Notes: a model not told the origin generated them from the sequence alone. A stretch of DNA of 62,658 nt, filler included, from Nemertoderma westbladi (GCA_032718475.1; 3 parts of 3 records of this genome joined end to end with filler, not necessarily neighbours in it), one strand, 5' to 3'. Shown: positions 2,299 through 50,179, counted from the whole stretch's first letter. Numbers and translations: made by a program.

Positions 2299-4314
2299 TA
2301 GGATTTATTTGTATATTATTAGGTAATAAAGAATTTTAATTAACAATTAATTTGTTTAATTATATCAGCTGATTTTGAAAAGTCCAAATTTTGCTCTCGT
2401 AACTCCTCCGACATTCTCAAAATGTTTCTATAAAATATATTAGGTAATATTAGGCAGACAACTGATACGGATGTTGAAATATTTAAGGCAACACTTATGA
2501 GTTAAGGTGCACCTTAGCTAAGGTTGATTTATATGCAACTGGCCTGTTACGGTATATGCGCTGTATACATATATTAGTCAGTTATACTGTACATATATTA
2601 GTCCATTATACAGTATAATATATTAGTCCTTTATATAGTATCATATATTAGTCCGTGATGCAGTATAATTATTTTAGATAAGGCATAATAGCGCAGTGAC
2701 ATTTAGATAAGGAGAATAAAACGCCCATATATTTTAAATTCATCCATTTTGTATAGTATGTAGCCCTACCTATGTAATTTTGTAATAGGATATAAGTAGA
2801 TAGTTCCAGGGTAGCAAGTTCTTGTTGGACCCTGGATATGGGCTTGCTATTATTAGCCTTGATGGGGCTAGCTATTGGTTTTAATTTTCTCTATAATGCG
2901 CTAAATTAACCTTTGTGCATCATGTTATTAGTACCGCTAAATTAAGCATTGGCAAAATTACCTTATATGGTGACGAATTGTGGGTTTTAGGAGCAATAGG
3001 TTCACAATCCGGCTCTCTTATTGGCCTAACTGCTTCCAGGTTGGTCTAATGATAGCTCGGATTGGGGAGCCAATGAGAGATCGATTGCATCACCTTTCTC
3101 AAATCACCTATAAATTGGCGTTTTGCCGGTATGTGCTGTGTTAGTTACAGTAGTGATAGTTTCTTCTTGATTATTCAGAGTTTCGGATACATTTGTGCGT
3201 AAATTCTGTATTTCTGCTTTTTTCGGAATTATTTTCTTGCAATGATTAGCTAGATTCTTGCTTGTGTTTCTCAATCAATCCCAATGATTGCTGTCAATTA
3301 CACTTGGAACTATGATTTCTACCTTTTAGTAAATGGTTCTATGTGATTTATTTCGACGCAATAATCCCACGGGATTTCTTAGACTGTCAGACTTTGTGAT
3401 TTGCATGTGCCGTTACGGTAGCTACCCATAGGATGGAGAGCTAAGTTACCGATAGGCGCAGGGTGCATCGGGGGGTTAGCGACGAAGGGAGCGCGGAGGA
3501 TTCAAAGGCGGGCAACGCTGGCATGAAGGTCACCGTTGCGGTTGGGCATTTGGCAGTGTAGAGCGGAGACCACTCGCTAGTACAGTAATTAGGGGCTGAT
3601 GATCCAGATTTTGTCTCTATTTTGTAGTATTAGGGGGGCAGGAATTGGGTTAGTTAGGAAGCCTAGATGTACTCGGGAGAGGCCTACATGCTTTACATAT
3701 CGAATTGCGAGTTGCGGTCGTTGCGAATAGCAAACGGCACTGTATTGTGAACTATTGATTGTTACGCTGATTGGTGTGTTACTAAAGTGTGCCTAATAAA
3801 TCACGAATGCTTAGATAGGCACTCTTTTCCCTTTGATTGATTTCTATTTCTTAGTTACGAAATTAATTATTGCTTAGGTTGAAAATAATACAGTATCTTA
3901 GGCTGTTACTAGTGTGACCCGGTGTGTAATAAATTAGAATTGCGCATTCTGGAATACTTAGTAATTAGTACGCTGTTACATATTTGTGACTGTAATTAAT
4001 TAGTAAAATTAAGAATTTGTACGCAGCATAGCGGAGAGTAGTTAAGGTAATAATTTAAAGTACCGTAAACTATTCATGCTGGGCGGTTATTTGAATTAGC
4101 GGGCAATAAGTTAGATCGCAGTATACAGTACGCAAAACGCATTAGTAATTTGCTGGCCTAAAGCCAGCCGTAGGCAAGTTTAGTCCCACAATAGGTATTA
4201 CCCCTAAATAAAACTGTACCATTTTTGATTATTTAAATATTCTCACATTCACACATTCCATTAGGGAACCCCAGTATTTGCGATTAGACGCGATTGTTTG
4301 CGATTAGATTAGAG

Positions 4315-4583
4315 TATAAAAGACGTAATTATTAGCGCGTTTTAAAAGTAAGATTAGGCCATAAGAATACACTCTGAGTGTAAGGCCTCTCACACTCGTC
4401 TTAAGTCAGCTTAGGGAGTCGATTCAGGTTTGTTGTTTTGGTTATTCCCGCTTGGCTCATATATTCGAACAGTTAGCTCTCTATTGAGTAATTGATAGAG
4501 AAAGTAACGAGAATTTAGCAGGAGCCGTAGAAAATTAGGAAATATATTAGCGGACGGCAGATTAGCGCCATCCAACGGTAAGT
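4315..4583 (+). promoter_or_regulatory. LTR TATA-like box (TATAAAA near 4315) and consensus splice donor CG/GTAAGT (4578-4583)
   Basis: Motifs are visible. The donor is also present in the 3' LTR (24147), and AATAAA lies about 50 nt before the LTR end (7588; 24214). Confidence 0.45.
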
Positions 4584-4592
4584 AGTGGGTTT

Positions 4593-7533
4593 CTCACTCC
4601 TCTACGTATACACGGATACTCACTACCAATTACTAACAACAGACAATACGGAAAACGTCAGAGGGGCGGGACAGCCATATACCTAAAAAACGGACTAGAC
4701 TACACACACCGTACAGATATTACAATTGAACACTGCGAATCTTCTTGGGTTAGTATTTCTAGAACAAAAAAATCTAAAAATATAAAACCAATATTAATAG
4801 GCAAAATTTATCGCCCTGATTCCTGCGATCTAAATAATTTTCTAGAAAATGTCAACAATTTACTTTATAATTTATCAACTCAAAATCTTGACGTTATTTT
4901 AACCGGCGATTTCAATTTAGACCTTTTAAAAAAATCAAACAACGCTATTAAATACCTACAAGTTTTAGAATCATACTCCTTCGAACAACTAATTAAAGTC
5001 CCAACTAGAATAACCCCCCATTCCAAAACTCTACTTGATCACATTTCAACAAATATACGAGATAAAATAATAACTCCCGGTGTTTTCCTTGCAGAAGTAG
5101 GTACAACTGACCACTTAGGTACATTTATTACAATTCAAAATTACTCATGTTTTTTTAACCCACCTGAAACACGTTACACTTACGACTATTCTAAATTTAA
5201 CAAAGAAAACTATCTAAACGATTTGCGAGAAACCAGCTTGTGGACATATAAAAATGATAATATTATGACTGAAAATAAATTTGAAGAATTTTACAAAAAT
5301 TTTGAAAAAATAACGAGTAAACACCTACCGAAAAAACAATTAGAAAAAAATGAAATACCAAAAAAACCATGGATGACCATAGGACTGATTAAATCGTCAA
5401 TAACTAAAAATAAAATGTACGCCGCTCTCTCAAAAAATACGACAGAAGAAAAATTAAAGGAATATAAAAAATACCGTAACAAATTTTCGAAAACTCTAAA
5501 ATCTGCGGAAAAATTATATTATGCAAAAGAATTCGACAAAAACAAAAATAATATGAGAAAAACATGGAATACAATAAATTCAGCTTTAAACAGGTCAAAA
5601 CCGAAAACTTCACCAAAAAAACTAATTATTACTGATAAGAATGGAAATAATAAAGAAATTACTAACCCCAAGGAAATCTGCAGTGTTTTTAACAACCACT
5701 TTGCTACTATAGGAACTCGACTGGCACAAGAGATACCCACAACAAACAGAAACCCAATACGTTATATAAACCACAAAAAACCAAACTCCTTCTCACTTGT
5801 TGAAACCTCTAACACTGAAACTATTTACAACATACTAGATCTCAATAACTCAAGTTCAACTAATGACAGCTTCCCCATCACTCTAGTTAAATTAGCAGCG
5901 TACGATATTGCACCACATTTGACATATCTGATAAATCTCTCTATTAAAACCGGTTCATTCCCATCCACTCTTAAATCTGCTAAAATTACCCCAGTTTTTA
6001 AATCCGGCGTCCCTACTGACAAAAATAATTACAGGCCCATATCAATATTACCTGTATTCAGTAAACTCTTTGAACGCGTAATCAACTCCCAACTAATCTC
6101 TTATCTAGACAAGTACTCCATACTCTCACAATACCAATACGGATTTCGAAAACAATCTACAACAACAGATGCCATACTGACTGTAACCGAAAAATTACAA
6201 AATATTCTAGAATTACAAGAATCTGCCTGTTTGATATCAATAGATCTTAAGAAAGCCTTCGATACTTTACAACACAATATTCTCTTAACGACGATACAAA
6301 CCTACTTTACAATCACAAAGACCTTGAAATACTAACTGAAACTGTAAATACCGAACTTAATAAAATTGATCTATGGCTAACCGACAACCAACTATCATTA
6401 AATCTTAAAAAAACAGAGTATCTATTTTTTACAAATAAAAAAGAAACAAAACACAATAACATAAAAATACGTAATCAACCAATAAAAAATGTAAATGAAA
6501 CAAAATTTTTAGGAATTTGGATAGACAGAAAGTTATCTTGGAAAAATCATTGTGCTTATGTTTTGAAGAAAATCTCAAAATCAGCTGGTATATTTTTTAA
6601 ACTCCGACACACTCTACCACTACGTATAAGAAAATTACTCTACTGTTCACTGATACAACCTTACATTAATTACGGTATAGTGATCTGGGGTAACGCTCAA
6701 TCTACACATACAAAACCTATTAAAATTAAAATAAATAAACTAGTCAGAGCTAGCTATTACCTTCAGTCACTACAGAGAACACGCATCACCACTCTACAAA
6801 CAATTAGATATACTACCGATTGAAAAACTGCATTTTCTTGAAACAGCTAAACTAATGTGGGAAATCCACAATAACAAAAAACAAAATTTTATCACTTCGT
6901 TGTTTCAACAAACATCTACTGTACATACTTCCAACACAAGATCAACAACAAGAAAAAACTACTATGTACCACGGACCCGACTACTACAAGGACAGAAATC
7001 ATTAAAATATAACGGTGTCATTGTCTGGAACACGCTAGATGTAGATATGAAACAAAGTAAATCGAAAAAATCATTAGGAAGAAAATTAAAAATTAAACTA
7101 ATAAATGAGCTACAGTAAGATAAAATACGAGAAATAAAATACAAAAAAATATAAAATATTGCGATTTTATCCAGTTTCAACTCCTAAAAATACAAATTAA
7201 ATTAATTGAATAAAAAGTAAAATAAATATACAGTACTTTGTGGGAAAAACGAAAAAATGGAAATCGCCTGAGCTGTTGCTGGTTGGATAGGCTAGTACCA
7301 CCCCACCCACCCCCCCCCCCCCCCCCCCGAACTGGTCGTTGATAGCAGTTGACAAAACTAGCTTCGGCTACTGCCAACTACTATCAGTGCACTATTATTA
7401 CCAACATTCAAAATTATTAAATTGTTAAATGCTTACCCTGCTAATTAAAAATTAAAAATAATGCAATTATTGTTATAATTATTGTGTACGACCACTCGGT
7501 ATAAATAAAAATAAATAAATCTCAATCTCAATC
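4593..7533 (+). mobile_element. 5'-truncated CR1-group (L2/Crack-like) LINE inserted in the 5' LTR
   Basis: APE motifs (RGGGTAIY, IYRP, TGDFN, PTRIT, LLDH, TDH) and RT motifs (NYRPISILP, QYGFR, IDLKKAFDT). An internal deletion near 6288 jumps to DDTNL. The 3' tail is AATAAA...(AATCTC)n, and the LTR resumes at 7534. Confidence 0.92.
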
Positions 7534-8883
7534 TTTTGTACTCCGCAGCCCTACATTAGTAATTATACGCTCCTGATTGCCCTGTTTAATAAATAGAGCA
7601 GTTTGTGTTTTTATTGGTTAGGCCGGGTAGTTTGTTCGAAACAGTAAAGCACGTTTTGTTTTGCTGTACTGCGTACAGTAAGACAGAGAGTGTATTCTTT
7701 AGGCTGTTAGTTTAGACTACTGTTAGTTTTGTTTGTTTTGCTGCCTTTCAACAGTAAAGCACGTTTTGTTTTGCTGTACTGCGTACAGTAAAGTACGATT
7801 AAGATTGCTGTATTAGGTACTGTACTGCGTACGGTGAGACAGAGAGTGTATTCTTTAGGCTGTTAAGTTAGAGTTTGGTATTCATTAGTCGCAATACAGT
7901 AGTACAGTAGTGCATTAGGCTGATTTCTGTTACTGCGTACAGTAGAAAAGACATTTGTTTTGCTGTACCACATACAGTATTCATTAGGCTGTTAGGTTAG
8001 TGTACTGTTCTAGTTACTGTACTGCGTACAAGTGGATGTACGGTAGTGCGTTTACTAATCACAAATACAGCAGTTCATTAGGCAAGCTGTAATTAGTAAG
8101 TTTTTGAAAATATTAGCTAGGTTTGTGAGAATTCAGTTTCGGTCAAAATTATTTTGTAATAAAATCTAGAGTTTTGTACCGGTATATTAGATAACCGCTT
8201 AGTTGTTTTATACCATCTGGAGATACATGGCAAGACGGAGCTTCTGAGTTTGGGGTTCGTGTGGGTCTGCGGGTTCGGTTTGCAATCCGTGAAAGGACTG
8301 AAACTTTGGACGCGGATGTGGAATCTCACAGCAAACAAGGTTAGTTGTTCTGTTGGCACCATTGTGTTTGTGGAAGCAGTAAAAAATTATCGGTTGTTTA
8401 ACTGCGAAGCTGAACTCAATTTATTAGTTAGGTTAGTTAGGTTTAGCCGACCATGTTTTTTGAATCGCTCAAGTTAGAGAGAGAGAAAGAGAGAGAGTCG
8501 CAGCGCAAAGATGTAGCCACGCGCTAGTGGATACATATAATATTTGAAATTAAAATTGCGTTAATTAGAGCTGTATATGCAAAATTAGAAATATTTGGGT
8601 GGCAAGTTTATTTTGAATATTTTGTATTAGATTCAAAGTTATTTTGTGCTATACCGGTATTTAAATGCTATATAATAGCTATAGAATAATATTTATGTTT
8701 AAATTTTGTATTGGTATTTGCTACAACTATATCCTATTAAATTCCCAATATTGTATTGCGAATTTATTTGACATTTTGAGACCAACCAATTATTTGACAA
8801 ATAATTTAACCGCATTGCGATTAAATTATATATATCTCGAATTTTGCGAGATTTTAGCCGGAAGGCAAAATATTACTTAGACA

Positions 8884-11800
8884 ATGAGTGTCTCAGACAA
8901 GGAGGCACTAGAGGACAGCTATGAGACGGCGGCCGGGCCGCCGACTGATACAGTGTAGACATAACTGTTGACGACAATGCCGACTATGACGACGCAGCGA
9001 GTGATGCTGATGTAAGTGAACAGGAGGACGAGACAGTAACCAGTGAGGAAGAGCAAGGTGAGGTAATAGTATTAGGATCCCCTACCACTACTGTAAGGAA
9101 GGATTGTATAGCAACCCGGCCAGAGGTGAGTGATAGGGAGGGTAGTATAGCAGAAGCGAGAGCCCGGAGCCCGGTTTCCAGACCTGTGGGCATGGTAAGT
9201 GCCGTGGTCCCAGCGGCTATAAGGAGTACCCGTAGTTCCCGAAATAATCCTTCAAGTCCACCGAGTGTGAGTCAGGTAAGCGAGAGAGAACTAGACATTG
9301 CGATAAAGAAGAAACTTCGTGCGCATGCCGGACATATAACCCGGACGGCGGACAAGGTAAGGAAGATGTTAGCCAACTCAGCGAACATCGGAAGGGAAGG
9401 GTTAGTAGAGATTAGAAGAGGATACAACTCAGCGTTATTCAAGCAGACAGAGGAGCTTGCAGTCCTAGCAAAGAAAGCAGTGGAGTCTCAGTCGAGCGAC
9501 ATGGCGACGATGATTTACGATAGGGTTTTAGCAGCCTTGTTGGAGCACCGCGCGTTATCGGAGCGATTTCGACAAGTTAGGACGGATAACTGGTTGCTAT
9601 GGGCATCACAAGCGCAGGCAACTCAGGTGAGCGGCGCAGAGTTGAGAGATTTAGTGGAGCGAGAAGAGACGCAAGATAAGGAAGTGCGCCGTTATCAGAG
9701 GGAAGTTACCAGTTGGCTGATGCAGAGTGGAGTGGTGGTACCGGGCCAGGTGCTACCAACGACGGAGAACATCCAACAGAGGACGTTGACTCCACCCGAC
9801 GACGCATCTAGAGACAGTGGCGATTCCCAGGTTAGTCACGCGCGAGGTAAGGTTATATGTGCTAGATCCCTTGTTTCTCACAACTCGGCAGAGGAGAGAA
9901 GATGCCGACTGGACGAACAACAGGCGGAAGTTTTGCGTGCAGCGGAAGCACGGAAGGAAGCTGAGCGGGAATGGGAGCGCACACGTAAGTTAGACGCGAG
10001 GTTGCGAGAGTTGGAAGATAAAGGTAAGCGTGAGCAAGCGGAGCGTGAACAGAAGGAACGCGAACTCCAACTCGAACGCGAACAGAAGGAATGCGAACTC
10101 GAACTTGAACGCAAATGCAAGGAACGCGAACTCCAACTTGAACGCGAACGGAAGGAACGCGAACTCGAGATCGAGAAGGAGCGACAGGCGTTGTATGAAG
10201 AAAAGAGGCGTGTGGAAGAAGAGAGCGCAGCGAGATGAGCAAGGGAAGAAGAAGAACATAAACTGGCGCAGTTGGAAAGTGCGAGATTAGATTTAGAGAG
10301 CGAAGAACGGACCAGAAAGGCGAATGAAATCGCCGAGAAGGGGATGCGAATGATCGAAGAATGTGGGGCGAGTGTAGGTACCGAGTTGCGAGAACTGTTC
10401 GCACTGCAGAAGGCCGAACAGGAAGCGAGAACTCCGACTGTATGTGAGTCGACGACGACCAAAATTCCTATACCCGGTCCAGCTATTACAAGTACTCGGA
10501 TTGCTAAACCGTTCGCTACATATCGCACGCCAGTTGGTATTAGTGCTTCACCCATCGTGCAGGATCCACGTCATCAGAACACCGCACCAGTACATATCGA
10601 ACGTGAGAACGAAGAATTTAGAGGAGAAACTCCAACGGGACGAGTATTTGGCGAACCGAACCCGCGGGTTTGGAATACACGGACAGAGCGCCGACCCAGT
10701 TCGACGGAGAACTTCCGGGTTAAACCGGAAGAGGGATCATATGAGAGACAGCGGTTTACTCAGATAGAGCCGACTATACAACAGAACCCTAGCCAGGAAT
10801 TTATTACGAGGGATGAGTTAAGTGCTAGTTTAGCGCAAGCTATTTCGCCGCACATCCAACCTATAACGGACATGCTTAGTAACCTGCAGTTAAAGGAAGC
10901 AGCCCTGGTAAGAAGTAATTCAAATCCTAGCAGGCCTGACTTAGATAAAGTCCAACCTAGTCAACGAGTACGTATATCGGAGGCAACTATACCACATAGA
11001 CCTCAGGTAAGGACGCCTGTCCCGACTATTTCTAATCCCAATTTCGAAAATTTGGCAGAGAAGTTTATACAGGAGGCTTGGGTCAGGGCCTCGGGCCAAC
11101 ACGAGCGCTAAGGACTGACACTGAATCAATCGATGAAGAGGAAGACATGAGACGTCAGAAGTCCCGAATCTATAAGGAAAGAAGGACGGACGCGGAGCAG
11201 GTAAGTTTGAACCACCGGGAAAGGACCAGACTTAATAACCCTGCAGAACTAAACCATTTGTTAACCCGGAACGACGCAACTCTTAGAGACATAGGGAAGT
11301 TTGCCGCTAGGCAAGGACTACCGCGCAACAACCCCAGAAGTTTATGGGCAACCATAAGCACTGGAGGACATTCAAAACTTATGCCGATGAACAGCTGACC
11401 AACAGCACCTTTACTCCCAACGAGAAGTTTAACTATTTGCTTCAAATGCTCCATCGAGAACCTAGAGTCATTGCTGACAATTTTGTTGGCAATGAAAGAG
11501 CGTTTGAGTTAGCAATAAAGACACTTAGCGACATCTACGGGAATAAAACCAAGATGGCACAGTCGATAGTGCAAGACTTGAGTAAAGGCGGAAGGATAAC
11601 AACTCCGTTAGAGCTGTTGAACTTAGCGAACGCTATTTCGAACGCATTGGACATCTTGAGGATGGTGAATCTACCTCATCATGGTGATCACGCCGAAGTT
11701 TTAAAGAGTGTAATAAGATGTTTAAACATGCGTTACAGACAGAAATGGCGCAAATTAGAGAATAAGTTGGAGGGTCAAGGTAAGGTGTTGACACTTCAAC

Positions 11801-14800
11801 ACATTCATGACATGATAGCCACAGACGCAGTAGCAGAGATGAAATCAAATTTCTCAGAGGAGAATATGAGAGAGTCTAAACCTGTTACTGGTAAGTCTAT
11901 GGTAAGTTTTGACGATGACAGGACCACTGTGACATTTAACTCAGTAGACAGATATAATTCGAGTACCCCAGCCTTTAGATCAGACTCGCGAGTATGGTCA
12001 GGTGAGCGGTTAGATAGACCTAGGTTAAAGCAACAAGAGTTGCCGGATGGATTTGTAGGTTGCCAATTCTGCTTACTAAGGAGGTAAGATCTGACAATCA
12101 TAAGTTAGATAGTTGCAGACGGTTCAAATAATTAAATTTGGAACAGAGAAGAGTTCAAGTGCGGACGTTGGACACCTGTTGGGCATGTCTTGCACCAGGT
12201 CATGTACGGCGGCAGTGCCCGAACAGCAAGGACGGATGCATGGAATGCGGCAGACTACATCACAAGTTGCTACATGCAGATTTCCATACCCCAATGGATC
12301 GTTACTTACAGCGAAATCCTCAAAGGAAGGGGAGCAAAGAACCCGTATCGATAAGGAGAAATACGTACACCGGCATTCAGGACGATGGTTATCAACCAGG
12401 TTTGTCGGACGAGGATGGCGAGTCGAGTGCGAGAGAGGTGACCTGCCAAGGTTTCACCGCGGATAGTTCATCGACCAGCGCGTGGACGTATTTATCATCG
12501 GCCACGTCGGAGATATTTAGCGTGATTCCGGTGAAACTTACCAGAGATAAGGGATTGAAAAGAATATATGTGATGTTGGACACTGCGTCCACATTATCCT
12601 ATATCAACGAGGAAGTGGCGAGAGCCGTTTCTAGCTTCCAAGATGCCGAGGAGATCCAAATAGAGTTGAAGTCTATGCACGGGGTAGGGGACACAGAATT
12701 TTGGTAGAACTAGACTCCCTACTTCCGAGAGAGCAACACACTCGACAAGAACGAAGAGCATTGCCATTGGACGGATTCAAGTGTCTAGCTATGAAGGGGT
12801 TCGGCAGGCAGTTAGGTAAGGTGCCACCGATGAGTCCCATAGCACAGGAGTATTTTGACAAGGTTAGAGTACCGAGACACCAGGTAGGTTATAGGAATGT
12901 TTCTATGTTAATTGGTGCAGAACAGCTGATCACACACCAGATATGGAAAACGAGACCAGCTGAGCCGCATGTAAATGGACCACATGCCCATAGGACTATA
13001 TTAGGTTGGTATACAAGAGTGCCCATGTCCTATGAGTTTACAGGTGGCGACAAGCCAATAGACAGATACAACGAATTACAGCCTATAGCTGAACCACCGT
13101 TAGTAGAACCACCAGACATAGACGAGTTTAGGAGAACTTGTATTGACCATTATAGTGACGTTAGCGAGTCGGACGAGGAGTTGATTCCCGATAATGTTAG
13201 GTTGTCGGAACCACTTCACAATGACCAGACAGATAGTGAACCCGAGGACTACTGTTATCAGACCCGTGGGTCTGGTTCAGCGGCCCACGCTACCTATTTG
13301 AGTAACATTTTGACTTATACCGACATAGTGGAGGGTCAAGTGGCTAAATATTGAGACCTAGACATTTTCCAATACAGTGAGGAGGAGTTGCAGAAGGAAT
13401 TGATACGCCAGGACCTTGAGACAGGAGCCAGAACCGTCGAATGGCTGGATAAGGACGCAATGGAACCCGGTGGATATGACCTAGCCATGTCTACTGATGA
13501 GAAACGGGCGCTGGAGATGATGGAAGATACCATACGTCTGCTACTGACTGGACATTTTGAAGTTGGAATGTTGTGGCGTCGACAACCACCTAAGTTGGAG
13601 AACAACTACAGCTTAGCCTTGAAAAGATTGAACGGAATAAGGGCTCGGTTGTTAAGGAATCCGGACATTAGGGAGAAGTATTGCGCCCAGATCAACAACT
13701 ATTTTGCCAAGGGATTTGCTGGGAAGGTAGAGGAGCCGGACTTAGTGACGGACCAGACTTATTACCTCCTACACCACTATGTGACTCACCCTGACAAACC
13801 TGACAAAGTCCGAGTAGTCAACGACTGCGCAGCAGTCTACAGAGGTATGTCCCTGAATTCAGAGTTGATGGACGGTCCCAACCTGAACAATTATTTGATA
13901 GGTATACTTTTACGTATTAGACAGCGGCGATTCGCATTTACTTGTGACATCGAGGCGATGTTTCACCAGGTAAGAGCCTGTAAGGCAGACCAGGATAGTC
14001 TTAGATTTCTCTGGTTTGAGAATGAAGACTTATCCGGCCCAGTGGTTACATACCAGATGTACGTTAGGATATTTGGCGCCCGCGATAGTCCAAATGGCAC
14101 GCTGTTTGTTCTAAAGAAAACGGCAACAGCCCAGATTGGTAAGTACCCAGTAGAGGTTATTGAGTCCATCTTGAGAAACTTCTACATGGACAACGGATTG
14201 GTGTCTAAGGACACAGCGGAATAAGCCATAGAAGTGGCTCACGGCCTGCAAGAGTGCTTGGCTACAGGGGGATTCCCTCTGACCAAGTTCACTACAAACT
14301 CGGAGGCCCTATTAGAATCGTTCCCGGTGAAAGATCGCGGGAGCGGAGACATTGAATTGGGGGTAGAACCCATCCCCATGACACGAGTACTGGGACTCGC
14401 TTGGAATCCGAACACGGATAAGTTCCAGGTAAGAGTTAGATTTGAGCCCAGTAGTCCAGACAAAGTTTTGACAAAGAGAATTTGCTTATCGACATTGAGT
14501 AGACTATTTGACCCGATGAACTTTATCAGTCCGGTAATATTACAGGCACGAGCGTGCATGAGGAAAATTTGGTTGTCCAACCTCGAGTGGGACGAACCAA
14601 TATCTCCTATACATGCAAAGCAGTGGAGAGAGTGGGAAGCCGAGTTACATCTATTGAAAAATATAGATGTACCCCGTTCCTACTTTCCGAATCAGCTGAT
14701 ATTCCCAGCTGATCTCGAACTCCATTTGTTCAGTGACGCAAGTGACACCGGATTTGGTATGGTAGCCTACCTTCGCCGAGAGGTAAGTCAGGACAAGTTT

Positions 14801-17180
14801 GAGACGGCTTTTGTGACTTCTAGATCAAAGACAATGCCGGTCAAATACATGACTGTCCCTCGTGCAGAGTTACAGGTGGCAGTAGTTTCAGTCGAGGTAA
14901 GTAAGCAGATAATAGAGGAGTTAGACACGACATTGACCTTATTCTATTGGACGGACGCATCCTTAGTGTTAGTATATATCGCAGCCGACAATATTGCACT
15001 AAAGACATTTGTGGCCAACAGACGCGCTCAGATCGTAGACGTTTTGACGAAGGAACAATGGAGACATTGTCCGGGAGTGTTGAACCCGGCCGACATAACT
15101 TCGAGAGGTGCAATGCCGGTGGAATTCTGTCAGGAAGAGTCGCAGGAGTTTTGGTTGCATGGACCTGATTTTCTAACAAGGACACAGGAACATTGGCCAG
15201 AGCGACTGAAGATAGTGACCAATCCGATGCCAGAAGATGCAGAGGTCAAAGTGGAGAAAGTCTCTAAGTCAAAGTCTAAAGCCAAACTCAAGTCATTGGA
15301 GCGGCCTGAAGAGTCATTGGAGCGGCCTGAGATATCATTGGAGCAGCCCGGAGACATGTCAGACCTACAGACTTACGTGACTACTATGTCAGGAAGGGTA
15401 AGTTATGACATAAAACCACCCTTACAGACTAAACCAGAGTCACAGTTGGTAAGTGACGGACAGAAAATGACCGACACAATGGAGCCTTTGGTTTCCAAAC
15501 CTGCGGGTTTGGATTCGAAACTTCCATTAGTTAGCGGACAACCGTCGCTGGCATTAGAGCCAGCTAGTATTTATGATAAATTACTAAATTCGTCTGCCTC
15601 TTGGATGACAATTTGTAAAAGAACTGCGTGGTTAAGCCGATATATTCCGTACCTTTGTTTAAAACATTCGAAACATTTCGGAGAACAAATGAGCACTAAT
15701 AGTGAGCGAATTCAGAAATTGAAACAACCTCTGACAGAGGATGAAATTGATCAAGCGGAATTAAAGCATTTGAAGCATTATCAAATGTGTGCCTTCCCAA
15801 AAGAATTCCATCTATTATCGGCTCAACGACCAGTTCTCTATAAACCCCTTAGAAAATGGAGTCCATTAATCCATAAGGGTTTGATTTGTCATAGATCGAG
15901 AATCCAGACTGTCGACATAAACTCACAGTTTAGGTTCCCAGTGATAATCCCTAGTCACCCAATAGAATTTCAAAGAGCGATTCCATGGGATATACACAAG
16001 CGATTGCATCACGCGGGAAAGTTACACTGTTTGTCGGCAGCGAGACAGTGATTCATTCTATTGCAGCCAAGCAGGGCAGTAGGTACTATGTACGACGCCT
16101 GTCTGGTTTGCAAGAGGGTGAATGCCAGAGTATTGGAACAGGAGATGGCTGAACTCCCAGAAGCGAGAGTGCAGGCATATGACCCACCCTTTACGAATAC
16201 AGGGATGGATTGTTTTGGTCCGATTGAGGCAAAGAGTGGACGGCTGACCCACAAGCGATGGGGCCTGCTACTGACATGCATGGCTAGTAGAGCCATACAT
16301 ATTGAGCGTGTGGCAGACATGTCGACCACATCTCTGCTCCTGGCCTTAAAGAGATTTATGGCCAGGAGAGGACTAGTAAAGGCGTTTTACTCTGATAACG
16401 GTACAAACTTTGTCGGAGGGAATAGCGAGTTAAACGTGGCACACAAAGCAGCACAGAATAAAGAAATTTCTGCAGCACTTTTGCCCCAAAGAATAGAGTG
16501 GAGATTCAATACTCCAGAAAGTCCTTGGAGAGGAGGAAGTTGGGAGCGTTTAGTTTGCTCTATAAAGCAGGGCATTGCCAAAACATTGCCTGTGAACAAA
16601 CAACTTACCGACGACGAGCTGGTCACAGCTTTCATCGAAATCGAGCATACACTAAACTCGAGGCCGATAGCTATGTTGCCAGACGGTGTTGCATTAACGC
16701 CGAATCATTTGCTAATGCAGAGTCCAGCATTTCTTGTGCCGGCATCAGAACCCATTAGTGCCGACCTATATAGTCGTAAGAGCTGGAAAATAACTAAAAA
16801 AATGAATAATGGAAAATAAATTTGTGGCGTACACATTCTGGGAATATTGGCGGGAATACTATCTTCCCACCATATCTACCAGATCAAAGTGGTACAAAAC
16901 GGTTAGGAGCCTCCAAAGAGGAGACTATGTATTGATAACCGAGCCGATTGTCAAGAGAAAATATTGGGAGACGGGAGTCATCTTGCATATACACCCAGAC
17001 GTGCAAAACATAGTGCGCACAGTCACTGTGAAAATTAGGTGCAAGTGTCCGAAACCAAAGAAGTGTAAAACTAATGGTTTACGCACCTTGGACCGACCGG
17101 TCCAAGATATTGTGTTATTAGAGGAGACACGCATCAAGACAGGAGATTATAATTTGTCTCCTGCCTCAAAACAAAATTAG
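8884..17180 (+). pseudogene. BEL/Pao gag-pol polyprotein, about 10 stops/frameshifts
   Basis: Coiled-coil Gag N-terminus and Gag core (11344-12087); three BEL-type Cys/His knuckles (CWACLAPGHVRRQC, CMECGRLHHKLLH); protease LDTAS; RT DIEAMFHQV/FGARDSP/YMDN; RNase H FSDAS, PRAEL, WTDA, NPADITSRG; integrase GMDCFGP, SDNGTNF, GGSWERL; C-terminal FWEYWREYYLP domain. Confidence 0.95.
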
Positions 17181-17863
17181 TGTTGGACGCAACTCACTTT
17201 GTATGCATTCCTCGTATGCAAATACTAGGAAATGCATAGGAGCGGGATTGTGGTGATTTGCGTTGAGTTGTCTGGTGGGTATCAAAAAAAATTTTATTTT
17301 CAAAATTTTTTGAAAATTAAAAATTAAAAAAAAAATTTTTAAAATTAGAAGTGAACCCAAGACAATCTCAGACGCTGTGTATAGACGCATTTTGAATTTG
17401 TCTATAGACACAATAATTTGAAAAGTCATGAAGCCTGGAAAATAGCATTTAGAAACCATGGTGACGGCTATATTATGTAGGAGTGTAAATTGAGTTTAGC
17501 AACTTCCTCAGATTGGTGCCAGCAGTGCAACTAAGGTGCTAAAGGTTAGTAGCACCAGAGCGTACACGGACCCCACTCAGTAGTTTGCAGTGAAGTGTGA
17601 TGTTCGATTATCAAACCTGTGGGTTTGGTATAGTCGAGCGTTGAGACTATTGTCCTTTCTAACTACTGTAGCTTAGTACAAGTAATGGGAGTAGTTTGGG
17701 CATCAAAAAGTGAGTTGGTCACAGCCAGTTTATCTCCAAAGTTTTTGCGCTATGCATGGGAATAGGTTAGAGGATAGTTAGGAATGAGACGGGATCTAGA
17801 GAGTCGAACCTGAACTGCTGGAAGGCGGGCGGGGGGGGGGGGGGGGCTCATGAGGTCTGACAT

Positions 17864-17882
17864 CTAACTGATTTACCCACAG
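17864..17882 (+). promoter_or_regulatory. Putative splice acceptor for a subgenomic mRNA of the extra ORF
   Basis: CTAAC branch point, then TGATTTACCCACAG, about 130 nt upstream of ATG 18015. Confidence 0.5.
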
Positions 17883-18014
17883 CGTAATTAGTTACGTAAC
17901 GGAACCTTATTGGGATATATATATATATGTATATACGCGGATTGTAATGGAGAAGGGAATTAGAGCCCAACCAAATGAATCGAATCGAATGTTTACTACC
18001 ATGGAAGGTCGGTA

Positions 18015-18464
18015 ATGGAGCTAAATGGAAAGTATAAACCCTCTTACGATAAAGAATTAAGGAGGGAAAGAATGAGAGCGTTGGGGGACAGTATGGAAGT
18101 TTTGCGGAAGGAGTATCGCACTCGGTATCCCTACGATTTCGCGTTAGACGTATGCGACATTAGTGCAGACCCGGACGAGGAGATCGCACGGCTGTACCAT
18201 ATGAACATGTATTTACGACATGAAGAGCCTCTACCTGCAGTCCGAGATTAGTTCGACAGAATGCATCTTTACAGGAGGACTCGAGGCGAGGATCAAGAGA
18301 CGTCGAAGGTCTTCAGTGTATACAAGTTGTTCTATAAATGTGGTGAATGCATGAACAAACAAGACGTGGCGATTCCCGACCGATTGGACGAGTAACATCC
18401 TAAACCGATATTAACGTGATGTCAAGCTCACCAATTCCTTAGATACAACGAGGGAGGTTACCCA
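18015..18464 (+). pseudogene. Probable N-terminal extension of the extra ORF (same frame, three stops)
   Basis: ATG 18015 is in frame with 18465; stops TAG 18249, TAA 18393 and TGA 18417; no frameshift. Confidence 0.5.
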
Positions 18465-21400
18465 ATGAGCAACCCGATGATCAGTATCGACTTCAGCAGA
18501 AAGCGGCCTCCAAGACCTATTACGCTGACCGTTACGACATTAGATCCGTATACGGAGATTAAACCCTGTTCGACACCCAGTTTGATAGAGACAGCAGCGG
18601 CCATTTCGCTATACCGAGCCTACAAGGATCTAGAGGTGCGGCGCGAAGCGGCACGGGACTCGGGTACCAAACCCGTGGGTTTGGAGCTCTCGAGTCCCTG
18701 GACTACGTTTACTTTACCTCATCGAGCGAGAAGCCTCACGCCTGAGCATCAGGACGACATAGACGCGTTGCGGCAGGAGGAGCGAGCAGCGAAGGCAAAA
18801 CAATTATTCGATGCGCGGGTAGCGGAATATAATAAGACCGCGGATAGACATCAGGAGGAGACGAGGAGAATGACCGGATTTGTTCCACAGGCCGTATCTC
18901 AACCCCGACCGGTGTATCATTCCGACGGCAATAAACCTGCGATATTGGTAGATCACCCGGAGTCGCAAGAAGCAAATAGATTCTTGCCGATGGTGAGGAT
19001 GTCGGATCATTGGAACGTCGACTGTCTACGGGAAGTTTTATGCGCGAAGTTTTTGCGTGATGTCCCGATGCAGATCACAGACTATGACACATTGGATAAG
19101 ATTGGAGCTCCGGGGAAGGAGATTAAGCTATTCGGATGGTTAGACAAGTACATCAAGGTATGGGTCGCGGTGGCTACATTTCCAGATGACGAGGAGGTAG
19201 ACCAGGCGTGGCTGAGGAGAAAGGGATCTTACACCCGATATGACGACCACAAGGCTATCGAGCGCATGTGGACCCCATCAGAAGAGATTCAGCGTCAGTG
19301 GAGGAAAACGGAGGAATCACTGCAGGATTGGAGAGTGATGTTCTACAACAATGAAGGAGGGTCTCATCAGGAATGCTTGACTAGTAAGTGCATTCAAATT
19401 CGCGCGGCCGATGGTGTGACTCATGTGTTTATGCGCGTAAGAGCGGATAGAGAGAAACTGGAGCCCATAATCACGACACAATATCGGAAGGGGAAGGATC
19501 CTAGGGAACAGATTTTGGAGGTATGCAGGCGAGGAGGTATGCACGGAGCGGAGCGTATCGACGCCAGGATGCTACCCAAGAAAGTTAGAGAGGTGTTTCT
19601 TAACCAAGATTATGTCAAGGTGGGATCGGGAGTCCAGAGCGATTTGGAAAGTGACTTTAACGCCATGACTGATTTGGAGGATAGATTGCCAAGACCGTTT
19701 GTCGACACCAAGCTATTGTTGCTATGGGCACAGGATATTGGAATTTATAGGGAGTATCCCAACTCTGCCAAGACTGGTATGGGCTTCATAGCACATTTAT
19801 TGTATAATTGGGACTTCAAGTTGAAGACGCAGAAGAAATACGAGGAGGCGTATGGTGAATATAACACGCCACCGGGAGCAGAGTTTAAATCCCACTTCAA
19901 GCGGCAAGCGTTAGTGTATTGGAACATATGCGCGCCACCCCGTGCGTCACTACAATATTATTTGGTGCTTGAGTCGAACACGGTAACTTGTTTAGTAGCG
20001 GATATCGTTGCGCGAGTTTTGAAGCGTCATCCATTGGTGTTCGGAGGAGATCAATACGTTCGCTCGAAAGGGGGAATCCAATCCGACGTGATGAAGCGTT
20101 TCTTAACCCCGTTCTTCAACCAATCGTTAGAGAATACGTCGATGGTGAGGAGAGGATTAGCGATATTCGAAGGGATATATCGACAGAATATCGGAGATTT
20201 GGGAGACCGACCGTCGATGGAGTATCTGACGCCAGAAGCTTTGGAGAAGTGGTTCGGGAATCAAACCCACGGGTTTGGTACTCCCTTCCACTCGGAGGCT
20301 GATAGACCTGTTAGAGAGGGTTGGCCGGAGACGTTAGTAGAGGTGTTTGGAGTAGAACTTCTGGTAGAGAAGACATATCCGAAACGAACGCGGGAGGAAA
20401 TATTGGAGATAGAGGAAAAGGGCGAGGATGTTTACTTCGTTCCGGATCGACAACCTTTAACTGGAGAGGATGACATCGTATTAGACATTGGGAAAGAAGG
20501 AAGTGTGAAACCGATTGGAGACCTCATATACGAGAGGGCCTGGTTTCCACAAGCGCATAGGTGCAAGTTGTGCGGCAGCACAAGGCACAATCAAAAATCG
20601 TGCGACGCAGTAGTGGAGGCGGCGCATAAGGTCTGCCGTTGGTGCAACGAGACCAACCATTCATTTCATACGTGCACCGTTTTCATTTCTCAATGTGGAT
20701 ATTGTGGAGTAAAGGGACATTGTAGCGCAAGATGCCAACTGCGAGACGATTCCTTCCAAAACCATAGCGCTAACCTACTTCGGGAGATGCTAGATAAGTG
20801 GGAGAGTGTGGCTGACTACCACATACAAGCGCAGATGCATTGGTTACCATTTAAGGCGGGATATGGATTTTGGGCGGTAGACCCATCACATGTTGCATAC
20901 GAGCCATATTTGCAGTCGTTACCACAATATCAGGAGCTCATCCTAACCGCTCAAGACCTTCCACAGAACACTGGAGTCATAGTTGTTCGGGAATACTTCA
21001 GACAACTAAATATGGATAATAAGTACACTTGGAACTTTGTTGCTATTTGTGACCGTATCACGAAAGGTCTATTTTCGGAAACTAGAAAGGTGGTGCGCGC
21101 GCGAGGAGATTGGAGGATGGCGGCTATTCAATACTGCAACGAATTCCTATTGACTCACGTACCAGTGGGGTCGTTGACCGCTCGGAGAATTGAAGAACAG
21201 CGAACCACAGCGCCCACAGTGACGACCGTTGGAGCTCAAGGCTCACGGAAGGAACCAGGAGGAGAGGTCCGAGACAAGCATCAAGTCAAGGACGACCACT
21301 ATCATTTGATTATAGAGGCTCAGCGATTGCAGCGCAAGGCGCAGGGGGCGTCGGAGAAGGCGCGTGTGCAATTGCAAAAGGAAGAGTTGGCGGAAGTGAC

Positions 21401-21602
21401 CACAGGAGCACGACAATTGGGACGAGGTCGAGGTAGAAGCATGAGCTGGGAATCTGTCGGGGCTCAGGGAACATCATCGCCGGTTCCGGGGAGTGACGCC
21501 TCAAGGACGCCGTCAACAGAGTCTACAAGGAGTAGACTGGTGTATCTGGGGAGGGGGCAAAGGAGAGGAGCGAGCCCGAGAGACCCAGGAGCTAGCCGAT
21601 GA
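18465..21602 (+). CDS. Accessory ORF of the BEL element: DnaQ/DEDDy (WRN/EXD-like) exonuclease-fold domain plus three CCHC zinc knuckles
   Basis: 1045 open codons. ExoI-like VMFYNNEG (19335), LPKKVREVFLNQDYVKVGSGVQSD (ExoII), FVDTKLL, KTGMGFIA and W..PP..SLQYYLVLES (ExoIII-like). Three CX2CX4HX4C knuckles at 20562-20735; RG/S-rich tail. Confidence 0.8.
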   Translation: MSNPMISIDFSRKRPPRPITLTVTTLDPYTEIKPCSTPSLIETAAAISLYRAYKDLEVRREAARDSGTKPVGLELSSPWTTFTLPHRARSLTPEHQDDIDALRQEERAAKAKQLFDARVAEYNKTADRHQEETRRMTGFVPQAVSQPRPVYHSDGNKPAILVDHPESQEANRFLPMVRMSDHWNVDCLREVLCAKFLRDVPMQITDYDTLDKIGAPGKEIKLFGWLDKYIKVWVAVATFPDDEEVDQAWLRRKGSYTRYDDHKAIERMWTPSEEIQRQWRKTEESLQDWRVMFYNNEGGSHQECLTSKCIQIRAADGVTHVFMRVRADREKLEPIITTQYRKGKDPREQILEVCRRGGMHGAERIDARMLPKKVREVFLNQDYVKVGSGVQSDLESDFNAMTDLEDRLPRPFVDTKLLLLWAQDIGIYREYPNSAKTGMGFIAHLLYNWDFKLKTQKKYEEAYGEYNTPPGAEFKSHFKRQALVYWNICAPPRASLQYYLVLESNTVTCLVADIVARVLKRHPLVFGGDQYVRSKGGIQSDVMKRFLTPFFNQSLENTSMVRRGLAIFEGIYRQNIGDLGDRPSMEYLTPEALEKWFGNQTHGFGTPFHSEADRPVREGWPETLVEVFGVELLVEKTYPKRTREEILEIEEKGEDVYFVPDRQPLTGEDDIVLDIGKEGSVKPIGDLIYERAWFPQAHRCKLCGSTRHNQKSCDAVVEAAHKVCRWCNETNHSFHTCTVFISQCGYCGVKGHCSARCQLRDDSFQNHSANLLREMLDKWESVADYHIQAQMHWLPFKAGYGFWAVDPSHVAYEPYLQSLPQYQELILTAQDLPQNTGVIVVREYFRQLNMDNKYTWNFVAICDRITKGLFSETRKVVRARGDWRMAAIQYCNEFLLTHVPVGSLTARRIEEQRTTAPTVTTVGAQGSRKEPGGEVRDKHQVKDDHYHLIIEAQRLQRKAQGASEKARVQLQKEELAEVTTGARQLGRGRGRSMSWESVGAQGTSSPVPGSDASRTPSTESTRSRLVYLGRGQRRGASPRDPGASR

Positions 21603-21826
21603 GACTATAGTATCACGGGGCGACAGACTCTAGATATATACATCATCGTCGCTCTGATGTATATTGTAGCATTTTTTGTAAATATCCGACTAGACTCATA
21701 TACACTAGCCGCACTGATTTGAATTTATATTATGAGAGAGGCGAAGGAGGTGATTGGGGAGACAAACCTGCGGGTTTGGCTTACTCCTTTCACCTGCCCT
21801 AGCAAAATTTTATAAATGAAAGTAAT

Positions 21827-22115: not shown

Positions 22116-24270
22116 TGTTACGGTATATGCGCTGTATACATATATTAGTCAGTTATACTGTACATATATTAATCCATTATACAGTATAATATATTAGTCC
22201 ATTATATAGTATCATATATTAGTCCGTGATGCAGTATAATTATTTTAGATAAGGCATAATAGCGCAGTGACATTTAGATAAGGAGAATAAAACGCCCATA
22301 TATTTTGAATTCATCCATTTTGTATAGTATGTAGCCCTACCTATGTAATTTTGTAATAGGATATAAGTAGATAGTTCCAGGGTAGCAAGTTCTTGTTGGA
22401 CCCTGGATATGGGCTTGCTGTTATTAGCCTTGATGGGGCTAGCTATTGGTTTTAATTTTCTCTATAATTGCGCTAAATTAACCTTTGTGCATCATGTTAT
22501 TAGTACCGCTAAATTAAGCATCGGCAAAATTACCTTATATGGTGACGAATTGTGGGTTTTAAGAGCAATAGGTTCACAATCCGGCTCTCTTATTGGCCTA
22601 ACTGCTTCCAGGTTGGTCTAATGATAGCTCGGATTGGGGAGCCAATGAGAGATCGATTGCATCACCCTTCTCAAATCACCTATAAATTGGCGTTTTGCCG
22701 GTATGTGCTGTGTTAGTTACAGTAGTGATAGCTTTCTTCTTGATTATTCAGAGTTTCGGATACATTTGTGCGTAAATTCTGTATTTCTGCTATTTTCGGA
22801 ATTATTTTCTTGCAATGATTAGCTAATTGATTCTTGCTTGTGTTTCTCAATCAATCCCAATGATTGCTGTCAATTACACTTGGAACTATGATTTCTACCT
22901 TTTAGTAAATGGTTCTATGTGATTTATTTCGACGCAATAATCCCACGGGATTTCTTAGACTGTCAGACTTTGTGATTTGCATGTGCCGTTACGGTAGCTA
23001 CCCATAGGATGGAGAGCTAAGTTACCGATAGGCGCAGGGTGCATCGGGGGGTTAGCGACGAAGGGAGCGCGGAGGATTCAAAGGCGGGCAATGCTGGCAT
23101 GAAGGTCACCGTTGCGGTTGGGCATTTGGCAGTGTAGAGCGGAGACCACTCGCTAGTACAGTAATTAGGGGCTGATGATCCAGATTTTGTCTCTATTTTG
23201 TAGTATTAGGGGGGCAGGAATTGGGTTAGTTAGGAAGCCTAGATGTACTCGGGAGAGGCCTACATGCTTTACATATCGAATTGCGAGTTGCGGTCGTTGC
23301 GAATAGCAAACGGCACTGTATTGTGAACTATTGATTGTTACGCTGATTGGTGTGTTACTAAAGTGTGCCTAATAAATCACGAATGCTTAGATAGGCACTC
23401 TTTTCCCTTTGATTGATTTCTATTTCTTAGTTACGAAATTAATTATTGCTTAGGTTGAAAATAATACAGTATCTTAGGCTGTTACTAGTGTGACCCGGTG
23501 TGTAATAAATTAGAATTGCGCATTCTAGAATACTTAGTAATTAGTACGCTGTTACATATTTTTGACTGTAATTAATTAGTAAAATTAAGAATTTGTACGC
23601 AGCATAGCGGAGAGTAGTTAAGGTAATAATTTAAAGTACCGTAAACTATTCTCGCTGGGCGGTTATTTGAATTAGCGGGCAATAAGTTAGATCGCAGTAT
23701 ACAGTACGCAAAACGCATTAGTAATTTGCTGGCCTAAAGCCAGCCGTAGGCAAGTTTAATCCCACAATAGGTATTACCCCTAAATAAAACTGTACCATTT
23801 TTGATTATTTAAATATTCTCACATTCACACATTCCGTTAGGGAACCCCATTATTAGACGCGATTGTTTGCGATTAGATTAGATTAGAAAAGACGTAATTA
23901 TTAGCGCGTTTTAACAGTAAGATTAGGCCATAAGAATACACTCTGAGTGTAAGGCCTCTCACACTCGTCTTAAGTCAGCTTAGGGAGTCGATTCGGGTTT
24001 GTTGTTTTGGTTATTCCCGCTTGGCTCATATATTCGAACAGTTAGCTCTCTATTGAGTAATTGATAGAGAAAGGAACGAGAATTTAGCAGGAGCCGTAGA
24101 AAATTAGGAAATATATTAACGGACGGCAGATTAGCGCCATCCAACGGTAAGTAGTGGGTTTTTGTACTCCGCAGCCCTACATTAGTAATTATACGCTCCT
24201 GATTGCCCTGTTTAATAAATAGAGCAGTTTTGTGTTTTTATTGGTTAGGCCGGGTAGTTTGTTCGAAACA
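22116..24270 (+). repeat. 3' LTR of the BEL element (2155 bp)
   Basis: TG...CA termini; matches the 5' LTR. Confidence 0.95.
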
Positions 24271-29714: not shown

Positions 29715-30092
29715 TTACAAAGGCAGAGAGCCAGACCAACAGCTGGCCATGTATATACCATATGATTGAAGTTTTGATATAAGCTTTGTGTGTGAAACTT
29801 TATCGAATGCACGTTGGAAGTCTGTGTAGATTATGTCCACACCAACACTCGAGTTACGAAATGTAGCCCAATCGAGGCTGCATTCAAGTAGTTGAGTAAA
29901 AGTTGATTTTGATTTGAGGAAACCGTGTTGGTGGGGACTGATGACCTTTATACGGACTAAGTATGCAATCATACGGTTTCGTATTATTGTTTCCATTGTT
30001 TTCACCAGTAGACTTGTTAGAGAAATAGGTCGATAGTTTGACGGATCAGTGCGTGGGCCTTTATTCTTGAAGATTGGAATTATGTGAGCCAA
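29715..30092 (-). mobile_element. CR1-type LINE reverse transcriptase fragment
   Basis: IIPIFKNKG..DPSNYRPISLTS..QHGF..DIIYTDFQRAFDKVSH..KLQSYGI. Confidence 0.88.
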
Positions 30093-34041: not shown

Positions 34042-34587
34042 ATGGCATCGAACCGTCAGAATCGTCTAGACAGAATAAAATTATTAATCAAGGATTACCC
34101 CGACTTTCCTAAACCTGGGGTTCTGTTCCGGGATATATTCCCAGTCCTACGGAACAATCAGGCATTCAAAGATCTCGTAGACCTTCTATCCGAGCACATC
34201 CGTGAGACATCCATACAGGCAGTCGATGTTGTGGTAGGTCTGGACGCTAGAGGTTTCCTTTTAGGTCCGCTAGTTGCGTTGTCTTTAGGGGCGGCGTTTG
34301 TTCCCGTTCGTAAGAGCGGTAAGTTACCCGGCGAATGTTTCAAGGTTTCTTACTCTTTGGAGTACGGTACGGACTCACTTGAGATACAGAAAGCAGCTGT
34401 TCCATCCGATTCCCGTGTTGTTATTATTGACGATCTCTTAGCTACGGGCGGAACTATGAAAGCCGCATGTAACTTAGTGAATCAATGTGGCGCTCAGATA
34501 CTAAAGTGTATCTTCTGTATCGAACTATTAGCTCTGAATGGTCGAGATGGTATTAAACATGACGTTTTCTCCCTTCTACAATACTAA
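34042..34587 (+). CDS. APRT: Adenine phosphoribosyltransferase, intronless CDS (the ORF extends upstream to ATG 33919)
   Basis: YPDFPKPGVLFRDI, GLDARGF, VRKSGKLPG, YSLEYG, PRPP-binding VVIIDDLLATGGT, animal-like C-terminus FSLLQY. Confidence 0.96.
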   Translation: MASNRQNRLDRIKLLIKDYPDFPKPGVLFRDIFPVLRNNQAFKDLVDLLSEHIRETSIQAVDVVVGLDARGFLLGPLVALSLGAAFVPVRKSGKLPGECFKVSYSLEYGTDSLEIQKAAVPSDSRVVIIDDLLATGGTMKAACNLVNQCGAQILKCIFCIELLALNGRDGIKHDVFSLLQY

Positions 34588-50019: not shown

Positions 50020-50179
50020 AGTCAATTAAATATGATTCAATTTGTAATAATACACACCCTAATTAAATAAAAAATTATAATATATCCCTACAGAATTAAA
50101 ATAAATATGTCGTAACATTTCGCCACGTAGTTCAATCCAATTTATTGCGAAAATGTTCGTCATAAATTGTAGGGGGGAC

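Follow-up and report, generated by a model that had tools for sequence, protein, structure and literature searches.

We describe an array of short repeats, predicted to form hairpins, in a BEL/Pao long terminal repeat (LTR) retrotransposon of Nemertoderma westbladi (GCA_032718475.1). The element lies in a stretch of 62,658 nucleotides (nt), filler included, in which 3 record parts are joined that are not necessarily neighbours; we refer to this whole stretch as the window. Eight to ten copies of one near-palindromic 18-nt unit are dispersed along the internal region of the element, and this hairpin array is real and well above chance. The array is known from a single copy of the family, and all copy statistics given below are within one element. 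Two proteins with CCHC knuckles are encoded by the element, Gag and the product of an accessory open reading frame (ORF), ORF3. We consider it about an even bet that the repeats are docking sites, on the sense-strand RNA, for such an element-encoded knuckle protein, which would build a long genomic ribonucleoprotein particle.

Results

Copies of the unit and their background frequency

In an original prediction, made from the sequence alone, eight copies of the unit were listed, and all eight strings are present at their positions, each of them once. Together with the sites at 8261 and 11980 this gives the ten candidates listed here, with codon phases for those in coding sequence and with the predicted pairing probability in a 218-nt context where a probability is given.

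8261..8278, + strand: doubtful copy in the leader, from a structure-aware scan; loop TGCG, wobble-rich stem; probability 0.00
9178..9195, + strand: degenerate copy in the N-terminal region of Gag, phase 1; two stem mismatches; probability 0.02
10656..10673, + strand: copy in the Gag region upstream of the capsid domain, phase 0; loop CGCG; probability 0.95 on the sense and 0.00 on the antisense strand
11980..11997, + strand: further copy, between capsid and knuckles, phase 0; loop CGCG, differing from the palindrome at 5 positions; probability 0.69 on the sense and 0.00 on the antisense strand
13258..13275, + strand: copy in the linker between protease and reverse transcriptase (RT), phase 2; loop CGTG, double-sided A-T to G-C change
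15495..15512, + strand: copy closing an insertion of about 80 residues between RNase H and integrase, phase 1; loop TGCG, longer stem at about 15475-15531
17611..17628, + strand: non-coding copy; loop TGTG, longer stem (about 17594-17648) carrying a bulge of 2 nt on its 3' side; z -5.4 on the sense and -2.8 on the antisense strand
18667..18684, + strand: copy in the N-terminal region of ORF3, phase 1; loop CGTG, 10-bp lower stem
20261..20278, + strand: copy in the ORF3 linker from the exonuclease fold to the knuckles, phase 2; loop CACG, longer lower stem
21762..21779, + strand: copy in the non-coding tail; loop TGCG, longer stem; probability 1.0 sense, 0.41 antisense

In the copy at 11980 the loop-closing pair is changed from C-G to T-A and there is one G-A mismatch. 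The candidate at 8261 was chosen for its pairing.

With up to 4 mismatches to the palindrome CCAAACCCGCGGGTTTGG, there are 7 sites in the internal region, compared to a mean of 0.042 and a maximum of 2 in 500 dinucleotide shuffles. If 5 mismatches are allowed, the number of sites increases to 9 (shuffles: up to 3, with a mean of 0.39). In the other 48,206 nt of the window there are 0 sites at the stricter threshold and 1 at the more permissive one.

Since the consensus CCAAACCCGCGGGTTTGG was derived from the copies themselves, we also applied a motif-blind detector of dispersed similar hairpins. It finds 7 in this element, whereas among 78 other BEL loci 49 score 1, 26 score 2 and 3 reach the maximum of 3; these control loci are metagenomic, a set of 78 retained from at least 503 that were confirmed. 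With a covariance model built on the 10 sites, no extra copy emerges in the window (outside the training sites, which have 22.8-39.3 bits, the highest score is 9.6 bits). In agreement with the palindrome scan at up to 4 mismatches and with the original prediction, the LTRs and the rest of the window are without the unit. A search of Rfam over 2500-24300 gave 0 matches at E up to 1. In viral contigs no BEL locus was found; 48 stretches there have one motif site apiece.

Pairing and strand of the unit

The predicted unit consists of a 7-bp stem and a YRYG tetraloop, with G at loop positions 2 and 4. The G at position 4 is present in 10/10 candidates and the one at position 2 in 9/10. For 8 of the 10 candidates the apical stem has a pairing probability of 0.69-1.0 on the sense strand. 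The hairpin at 9178, which had been counted among the copies as a degenerate one, is not predicted to form. A Roquin-type triloop register is ruled out, with a predicted probability of 0.00 in all copies.

Over all 10 candidates, 92.9% of the stem cells pair, and there are three pairs with double-sided changes, a number that is reached by 8 of 500 shuffles. The compensatory change from A-T to G-C at 13258 is confirmed as double-sided. However, it is the only such change among the eight copies originally listed, and we therefore regard the core as mainly conserved in sequence rather than covarying; for the core, the description of the unit as "covarying" has thin support.

Outside of the core, a pyrimidine-then-G pattern at -8 to -4 is common to the 5' flanks (identity 0.34, compared to 0.26 for random flanks; 0 of 5000 sets), while the 3' flanks are unrelated (0.27 compared to 0.26). 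With the core held fixed, the lower stems beat random flanks from the element at P < 0.05 in 5/10 sites (Fisher 8e-6) and shuffled flanks in 3/10 (Fisher 0.003). Longer stems had been proposed for the non-coding copies; they are indeed found there, but they are not restricted to them, as the coding copies at 15495, 18667 and 20261 have them too. The consensus fold of the five best copies has a 2-nt 3' bulge, and 8 of its 18 pairs show double-sided changes. The lower-stem geometry taken from the copy at 18667 scores well on all ten (0 of 500 shuffles), and the copies at 17611, 18667 and 21762 fit it with 10, 10 and 8 of 10 pairs, respectively. One fixed geometry for all copies had to be rejected, as it is significant only when the defining copy, 18667, is included.

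We counted the departures from the palindrome in 9 copies obtained with a strand-neutral scan: 13 are of the G-U type on the sense strand and 2 on the antisense strand (P = 0.007). For the stem alone, the ratio is 5:1 (P = 0.22). From the base counts of the internal region (C 2799, T 3460, G 3839, A 4374), no excess of C-to-T over G-to-A changes would be expected. CpG decay was rejected as the source of the loop variation; the observed to expected ratio of CpG is 0.97, and there are 5 changes per about 74 CpGs in the LTRs compared to 9/18 in the loops. We give little weight to the count of lower-stem G-U pairs (14 compared to 2), since the register was picked on the sense strand. We regard the sense-strand RNA as the likely form.

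Placement and spacing

Seven of the 10 candidates are coding, in phases 0, 0, 1, 1, 1, 2 and 2. With all three codon phases occupied, and in linker positions, a protein motif is excluded, as the original prediction maintained. Its statement that the coding copies lie in inter-domain linkers holds as well: the copy at 15495 is found in an insertion that relatives do not share (occupied in 1-6% of 23 relatives), and the one at 20261 in an ORF3 linker that is variable among 7 relatives of ORF3. The insertion itself, at 15275-15515, also has a short 21-nt tandem repeat and is missing in the 23 relatives. The conserved-domain blocks cover 36% of the region, and 9/9 copies are outside of them, for which the chance is 0.64 to the ninth power, or 0.018, with blocks drawn by hand after the copies were known. 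Among 120 relatives of Pol, 4 have one motif-type peptide of 5 residues and none has one of 6 residues, a count made with no control set.

The copies had been described as spaced by 1-2.6 kb. The array is regular, but the gap of 2.6 kb is closed by the further copy at 11980, and with this copy included the gaps are 1056-2237 nt long. For the eight copies originally listed, the coefficient of variation of the gaps is 0.30 (P = 0.0016 compared to uniform placement), and the evenness has P = 0.00025 when the conserved domains are closed to placement. The longest gaps cover RT-RNase H and integrase. Each linker has a single copy and the non-coding DNA shows no clustering, which suggests selection on spacing and not on number alone. 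A role as splice donor was rejected by inspection, as only the copy at 9178 overlaps GGTAAGT.

The accessory protein ORF3

By comparison of protein profiles, ORF3 is a putative DEDDy exonuclease-fold protein with three CCHC knuckles similar to those of Lin28 and of nucleocapsids. For residues 150-600, 25 of 30 Atlas hits are in a 3'-5' exonuclease set with PF01612 on 50% of its members (score 0.90). A full HMMER scan yields 7 relatives (P0122-P0128; E from 2e-10 to 4e-4, 25-32% identity over the matched stretches), which share the layout of ORF3: an exonuclease fold, then a linker that varies, then three CCHC knuckles followed by a conserved block. Their joint profile matches human-type EXD2 (6k17, E = 3.9e-7) and Lin28 (E = 2.6e-6), as well as nucleocapsids of retroviruses (E about 1e-3). 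The alignment of the ORF3 profile to 9 RNase D-type domains using hhalign has a probability of 93.9%, or 96.3% when the protein of the window is left out.

The first catalytic motif, D-x-E, is found in 5/7 relatives; ORF3 of the window has no acidic residue there, in an alignment of about 20% identity and uncertain register. The missing acids may be either a trait of the family or a lesion of this one copy. Searches with Pfam, NCBIfam and a word-indexed homolog search gave no name and no relative for ORF3, and the folds predicted from the single sequence had pLDDT 32-35, with uninformative fold searches. The family has no name; besides the 7 distant relatives, there are only weak knuckle matches in Pfam.

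The element and the remainder of the window

The assignment to BEL/Pao follows from two LTRs with TG...CA ends, a 5-nt target-site duplication with one mismatch, and matches to Gag DUF1759, to the Pao RNase H (Peptidase_A17) and to an integrase downstream of RT. BEL/Pao elements are not known outside animals and are classed as Belpaoviridae. The main parts of the element are the following.

2545..4592, + strand: first part of the 5' LTR, 98.3% identical to 22116-24161; TG start, target-site duplication TGGCC/CGGCC
4593..7533, + strand: LINE insertion, foreign to the element, which splits the 5' LTR; Pfam matches to RVT_1 and Exo_endo_phos; the LTR resumes at 7534
7534..7643, + strand: last 110 nt of the 5' LTR, a 99% match to 24160-24270
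8885..17180, + strand: BEL/Pao gag-pol, end approximate; DUF1759, zf-CCHC (weak), Peptidase_A17, rve
18465..21602, + strand: accessory ORF3, 1045 amino acids, open; DEDDy exonuclease fold at about residues 290-530, three CCHC knuckles at about 700-756
22116..24270, + strand: 3' LTR, 2155 nt, without a copy of the motif, from self-comparison; TATAAA at 22681, AATAAA at 23371, 23504, 23783 and 24214

Self-comparison gives two LTRs of about 2155 nt each, with 22 substitutions between them over 2041 columns, and with 4 gap events. The internal region between them is 14,472 nt long. Since the LTR has a single TATAAA with four AATAAA downstream, a genomic RNA of about 17-18 kb is suggested. The closest relatives of Pol have an identity of 29-40%. 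The gag-pol frame is disrupted by in-frame stops and frame changes in about ten places and ORF3 is open across 3.1 kb, which may reflect non-autonomous spread or may be due to chance. A TGG-type primer-binding site for a tRNA was not seen after the 5' LTR: TGG does not occur in the first 60 nt from the LTR end, and other parts of the element contain no 9-nt complement. The leader at 7643-7850 contains duplicated hairpins. One with a CACG loop spans the LTR border (7643) and is repeated at 7753. TGC triloops cap three long stems, at 7654, 7767 and 7818. Upstream of ORF3, at approximately 18015-18396, there is a short Arg/Glu-rich frame that contains a stop. This frame could be either a small gene of its own or the 5' part of ORF3, now broken.

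Elsewhere in the window there is an inverted LINE at 50754-52285, which is 67% identical to the one at 4593-7533, and an intronless adenine phosphoribosyltransferase gene of 181 amino acids at 34042-34587, which is not represented in the protein collection searched. At 45401-50751 a 573-nt direct repeat (99%) surrounds a frame of 695 codons with Ser/Asp/Glu/Pro tandem repeats and no Pfam match; this repeat-flanked frame begins at an assembly gap and may be an element or an artefact. A long GC-rich (59%) frame with one stop at 54612-57899 looks by eye like a non-LTR reverse transcriptase and has no Pfam match at E = 0.05. Finally, there are a P-element-like transposase, 35-nt and 21-nt satellites and a weak minus-strand BEL integrase remnant (30042-32171; 25595-27159; 36858-39544; 61223-61756).

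Discussion

Proposed docking sites for a knuckle protein

We propose that the predicted stem-loops of the sense RNA would be evenly spaced docking sites for the element's own CCHC knuckle protein, which would coat and compact the long genomic RNA into a particle that is exported and packaged. The knuckles would contact the guanines in loop positions 2 and 4; HIV-1 nucleocapsid (NC) likewise binds G-2 and G-4 of a GGAG tetraloop (PMC3759924). The stem would be read by a second surface, provided either by Gag or by the exonuclease fold, as happens in Egalitarian. One site per 1-2 kb would then serve the whole RNA of about 17-18 kb.

A common ligand is indicated because the sites share their sequence although their 3' flanks are unrelated and they occur in three phases. 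The flanks are unrelated in sequence and yet predicted to pair, while a duplex DNA site would need no lower stems, which argues for a single strand. An element-encoded knuckle reader is suggested because knuckles read unpaired guanines, and the two that HIV-1 NC contacts are kept here. As to which protein would be the reader, ORF3 and the Gag nucleocapsid seem about equally likely to us. The more specific idea, that ORF3 is a dedicated reader of the hairpin code and forms with it a Rev- or Egalitarian-like pair that enables the 17-18 kb RNA of an LTR retrotransposon, is a possibility that we consider rather unlikely.

Several observations speak against docking sites of this kind. On the antisense strand, 5/10 candidates also fold well, and when 60-nt windows are compared with shuffles of each strand, the z-score is more negative on the antisense strand in 5/8 copies. 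Furthermore, 8 of the 13 sense-type departures from the palindrome fall in the loop, where the bases are unpaired in the hairpin. The lean to G-U wobbles on the sense strand is significant for the overall count and not for the stem alone, and the window z-scores point the other way. Without the copy at 18667, the lower-stem geometry (best of 10 offsets) has P = 0.15-0.18 for 8 copies and 0.03-0.09 for 7. At the protein level, to which this comparison is limited, the peptides coded by the motif are absent from 7/7 relatives of ORF3. The copies inside ORF3 would not alone separate the genomic RNA from a spliced ORF3 RNA. The hairpin and its lower stems are themselves predictions, we infer the reader, its binding and the step that would be served, and the array rests on one copy of the family.

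A check suggested with the original prediction was whether BEL families without the extra ORF also lack the motif. All 78 control loci lack both, with no match of the ORF3 profile in 78/78; however, this joint absence is weak evidence because the controls are distant (32-42% identity in Pol), short (mostly 5-10 kb) and in many cases end near pol. Taken together, the original idea of a multivalent RNA signal read by the accessory protein or by Gag is partly supported by the single-strand behaviour, the lean to the sense strand and the plausibility of ORF3 as reader, but the evidence on the strand is mixed. The proposed docking mechanism is plausible, and weakened by the single copy.

The closest parallel in terms of layout are the dispersed packaging signals of single-stranded RNA viruses and HBV, in which many stem-loops with a shared motif occur along the genomic RNA, coding sequence included (PMC6281560); going by the predicted folds, multiple stem-loops of this kind are found here as well. 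In the model virus, both the spacing and the motif of the packaging signals matter (PMC6281560). Unlike these signals, the array belongs to an LTR retrotransposon, has 8-10 copies of high fidelity and even spacing, and is conserved also in the stem. Signals of this class are in addition bound by the capsid or nucleocapsid protein, needed for assembly and conserved in position and pairing across strains or copies; the ligand and the role of the array are putative. Accessory proteins of retrotransposons offer other points of comparison. In the bdelloid LTR retrotransposons Juno and Vesta, pol is followed by an additional ORF whose exonuclease fold is of the DEDDy type (PMC5408684), but its catalytic residues are described as intact, the elements are apparently not BEL elements, and the words "hairpin" and "stem-loop" do not occur in the text. 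CERV, the accessory protein of the C. elegans LTR retrotransposon Cer1, is needed for the export of genomic RNA (PMC10309623); Cer1, however, is of the Gypsy type, and a term search of that paper's text gave no stem-loop or response element. Our literature searches, with most subscription papers outside their scope, turned up neither a cis-acting RNA structure for a BEL/Pao element nor a periodic hairpin array in an LTR retrotransposon.

Alternative explanations

The reader of the hairpins could be an RNA-binding protein of the host and not one of the element's proteins, for example a transport adaptor similar to Egalitarian or a factor for export or stabilisation. We think that this is unlikely. 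With the lower stem, the units measure about 45-55 nt, which recalls the stem-loops of about 40-65 nt, some with 3' bulges and several per RNA, that are bound by Egalitarian-BicD (PMC13186709, bioRxiv 10.1101/2025.08.03.668247). These are described as bent by 3'-strand bulges, as having spaced U-A pairs at two positions and as acting in pairs, and they include the signal of the I factor (PMC13186709). A net excess of 2 nt on the 3' strand is seen in the copies at 17611, 18667, 20261 and 21762. Nevertheless, this bulge is a property of three or four downstream copies, not a general one, and it is missing upstream; Egalitarian signals share a shape and no sequence (PMC13186709), while the copies of the array have 18 nt in common; and the motif is found in no other element of the window. 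Egalitarian itself has, like ORF3, a DEDDy exonuclease-homology domain, and in Egalitarian this domain binds the stem-loops (PMC13186709, bioRxiv 10.1101/2025.08.03.668247). But it is a host protein with LOTUS-like domains in which the DEDDy residues are kept, and ORF3 has knuckles and no acids in the first motif. The likeness to Egalitarian that had been proposed therefore extends to the exonuclease-homology domain and to the bulge of a few copies, and ends at the shared sequence.

It is quite improbable, in our view, that the copies serve a nuclease, the polymerase or RT as signals for processing or pausing, or that they are neutral remnants of a very small palindromic insert that settled wherever the protein could tolerate it. 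They are confined to tolerant linkers, the common 5' flank could reflect shared descent, and the first catalytic motif is kept in most ORF3 relatives. A neutral insert, however, should cluster in non-coding DNA and should occur outside of the element, whereas we see one copy per linker at even distances and none in the 48 kb outside. Moreover, the 3' flanks are unrelated and yet pair with their own 5' flanks.

A third explanation is that the palindromic units pair two copies of the genome, from a kissing contact to an extended duplex, so that a long RNA dimer stays in register while strands are transferred during reverse transcription. In retroviruses, the hairpins that serve as dimer signals are palindromic and rearrange into extended duplexes (PMC7599994), and the psi/DIS hairpins resemble the array in having guanines as the second and fourth bases of a tetraloop, a palindrome capable of forming a duplex and CCHC knuckles encoded by the same element (PMC7599994, PMC3759924). 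With G-U pairs, the YGYG loops are self-complementary in 9/10 candidates (2/10 by Watson-Crick pairs alone), every copy is predicted to prefer a self-duplex over two hairpins, and 50-mer duplexes across downstream copies are mostly weaker than self-duplexes. Yet any hairpin prefers the self-duplex in such a calculation, the loop at 20261 is not self-complementary, and the 18-mers cross-pair as well as they self-pair, and pairing in register would favour different stems at each site and not identical ones. Retroviral psi/DIS hairpins also cluster in the 5' leader (PMC7599994), while the array runs through gag, pol, ORF3 and the 3' tail. We find this explanation very unlikely.

Equally hard to credit is a palindromic site in duplex DNA at which a dimeric protein would keep the integrated element transcribed, as in the VANC anti-silencing system: the 18-mer is a near-perfect palindrome with a biased 5' flank, the strand evidence from the stem alone is not significant, and a transposon protein that binds a dispersed short motif of its own family is known (PMC5735166), but lower stems of unrelated sequence and a strand bias of 13:2 would be unexpected, the LTR promoter has no copy, and the domains of ORF3 are of the type that binds RNA or single strands. 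VANDAL elements do share with the array a family-specific short motif in many intra-element copies, read by an accessory protein there and by a candidate one here; they are, however, DNA transposons with a duplex DNA ligand and a non-palindromic motif clustered in non-coding tandem repeats (PMC5735166), and the copies described here are single and mostly coding.

Implications

The size of LTR retrotransposons is limited by transcript production, by the processivity of RT and by packaging capacity (PMC6431247). How such elements pass the usual limit of 10 kb is an open question, and the array, beside which a candidate reader is encoded, opens this question to testing. The hairpin is defined by a sequence of 18 nt, short oligonucleotides would do, and there is one open ORF. 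If the repeats are indeed docking sites for a knuckle protein of the element, this would offer a candidate function for the exonuclease-fold accessory ORFs of retrotransposons, the role of which is unproven (PMC5408684).

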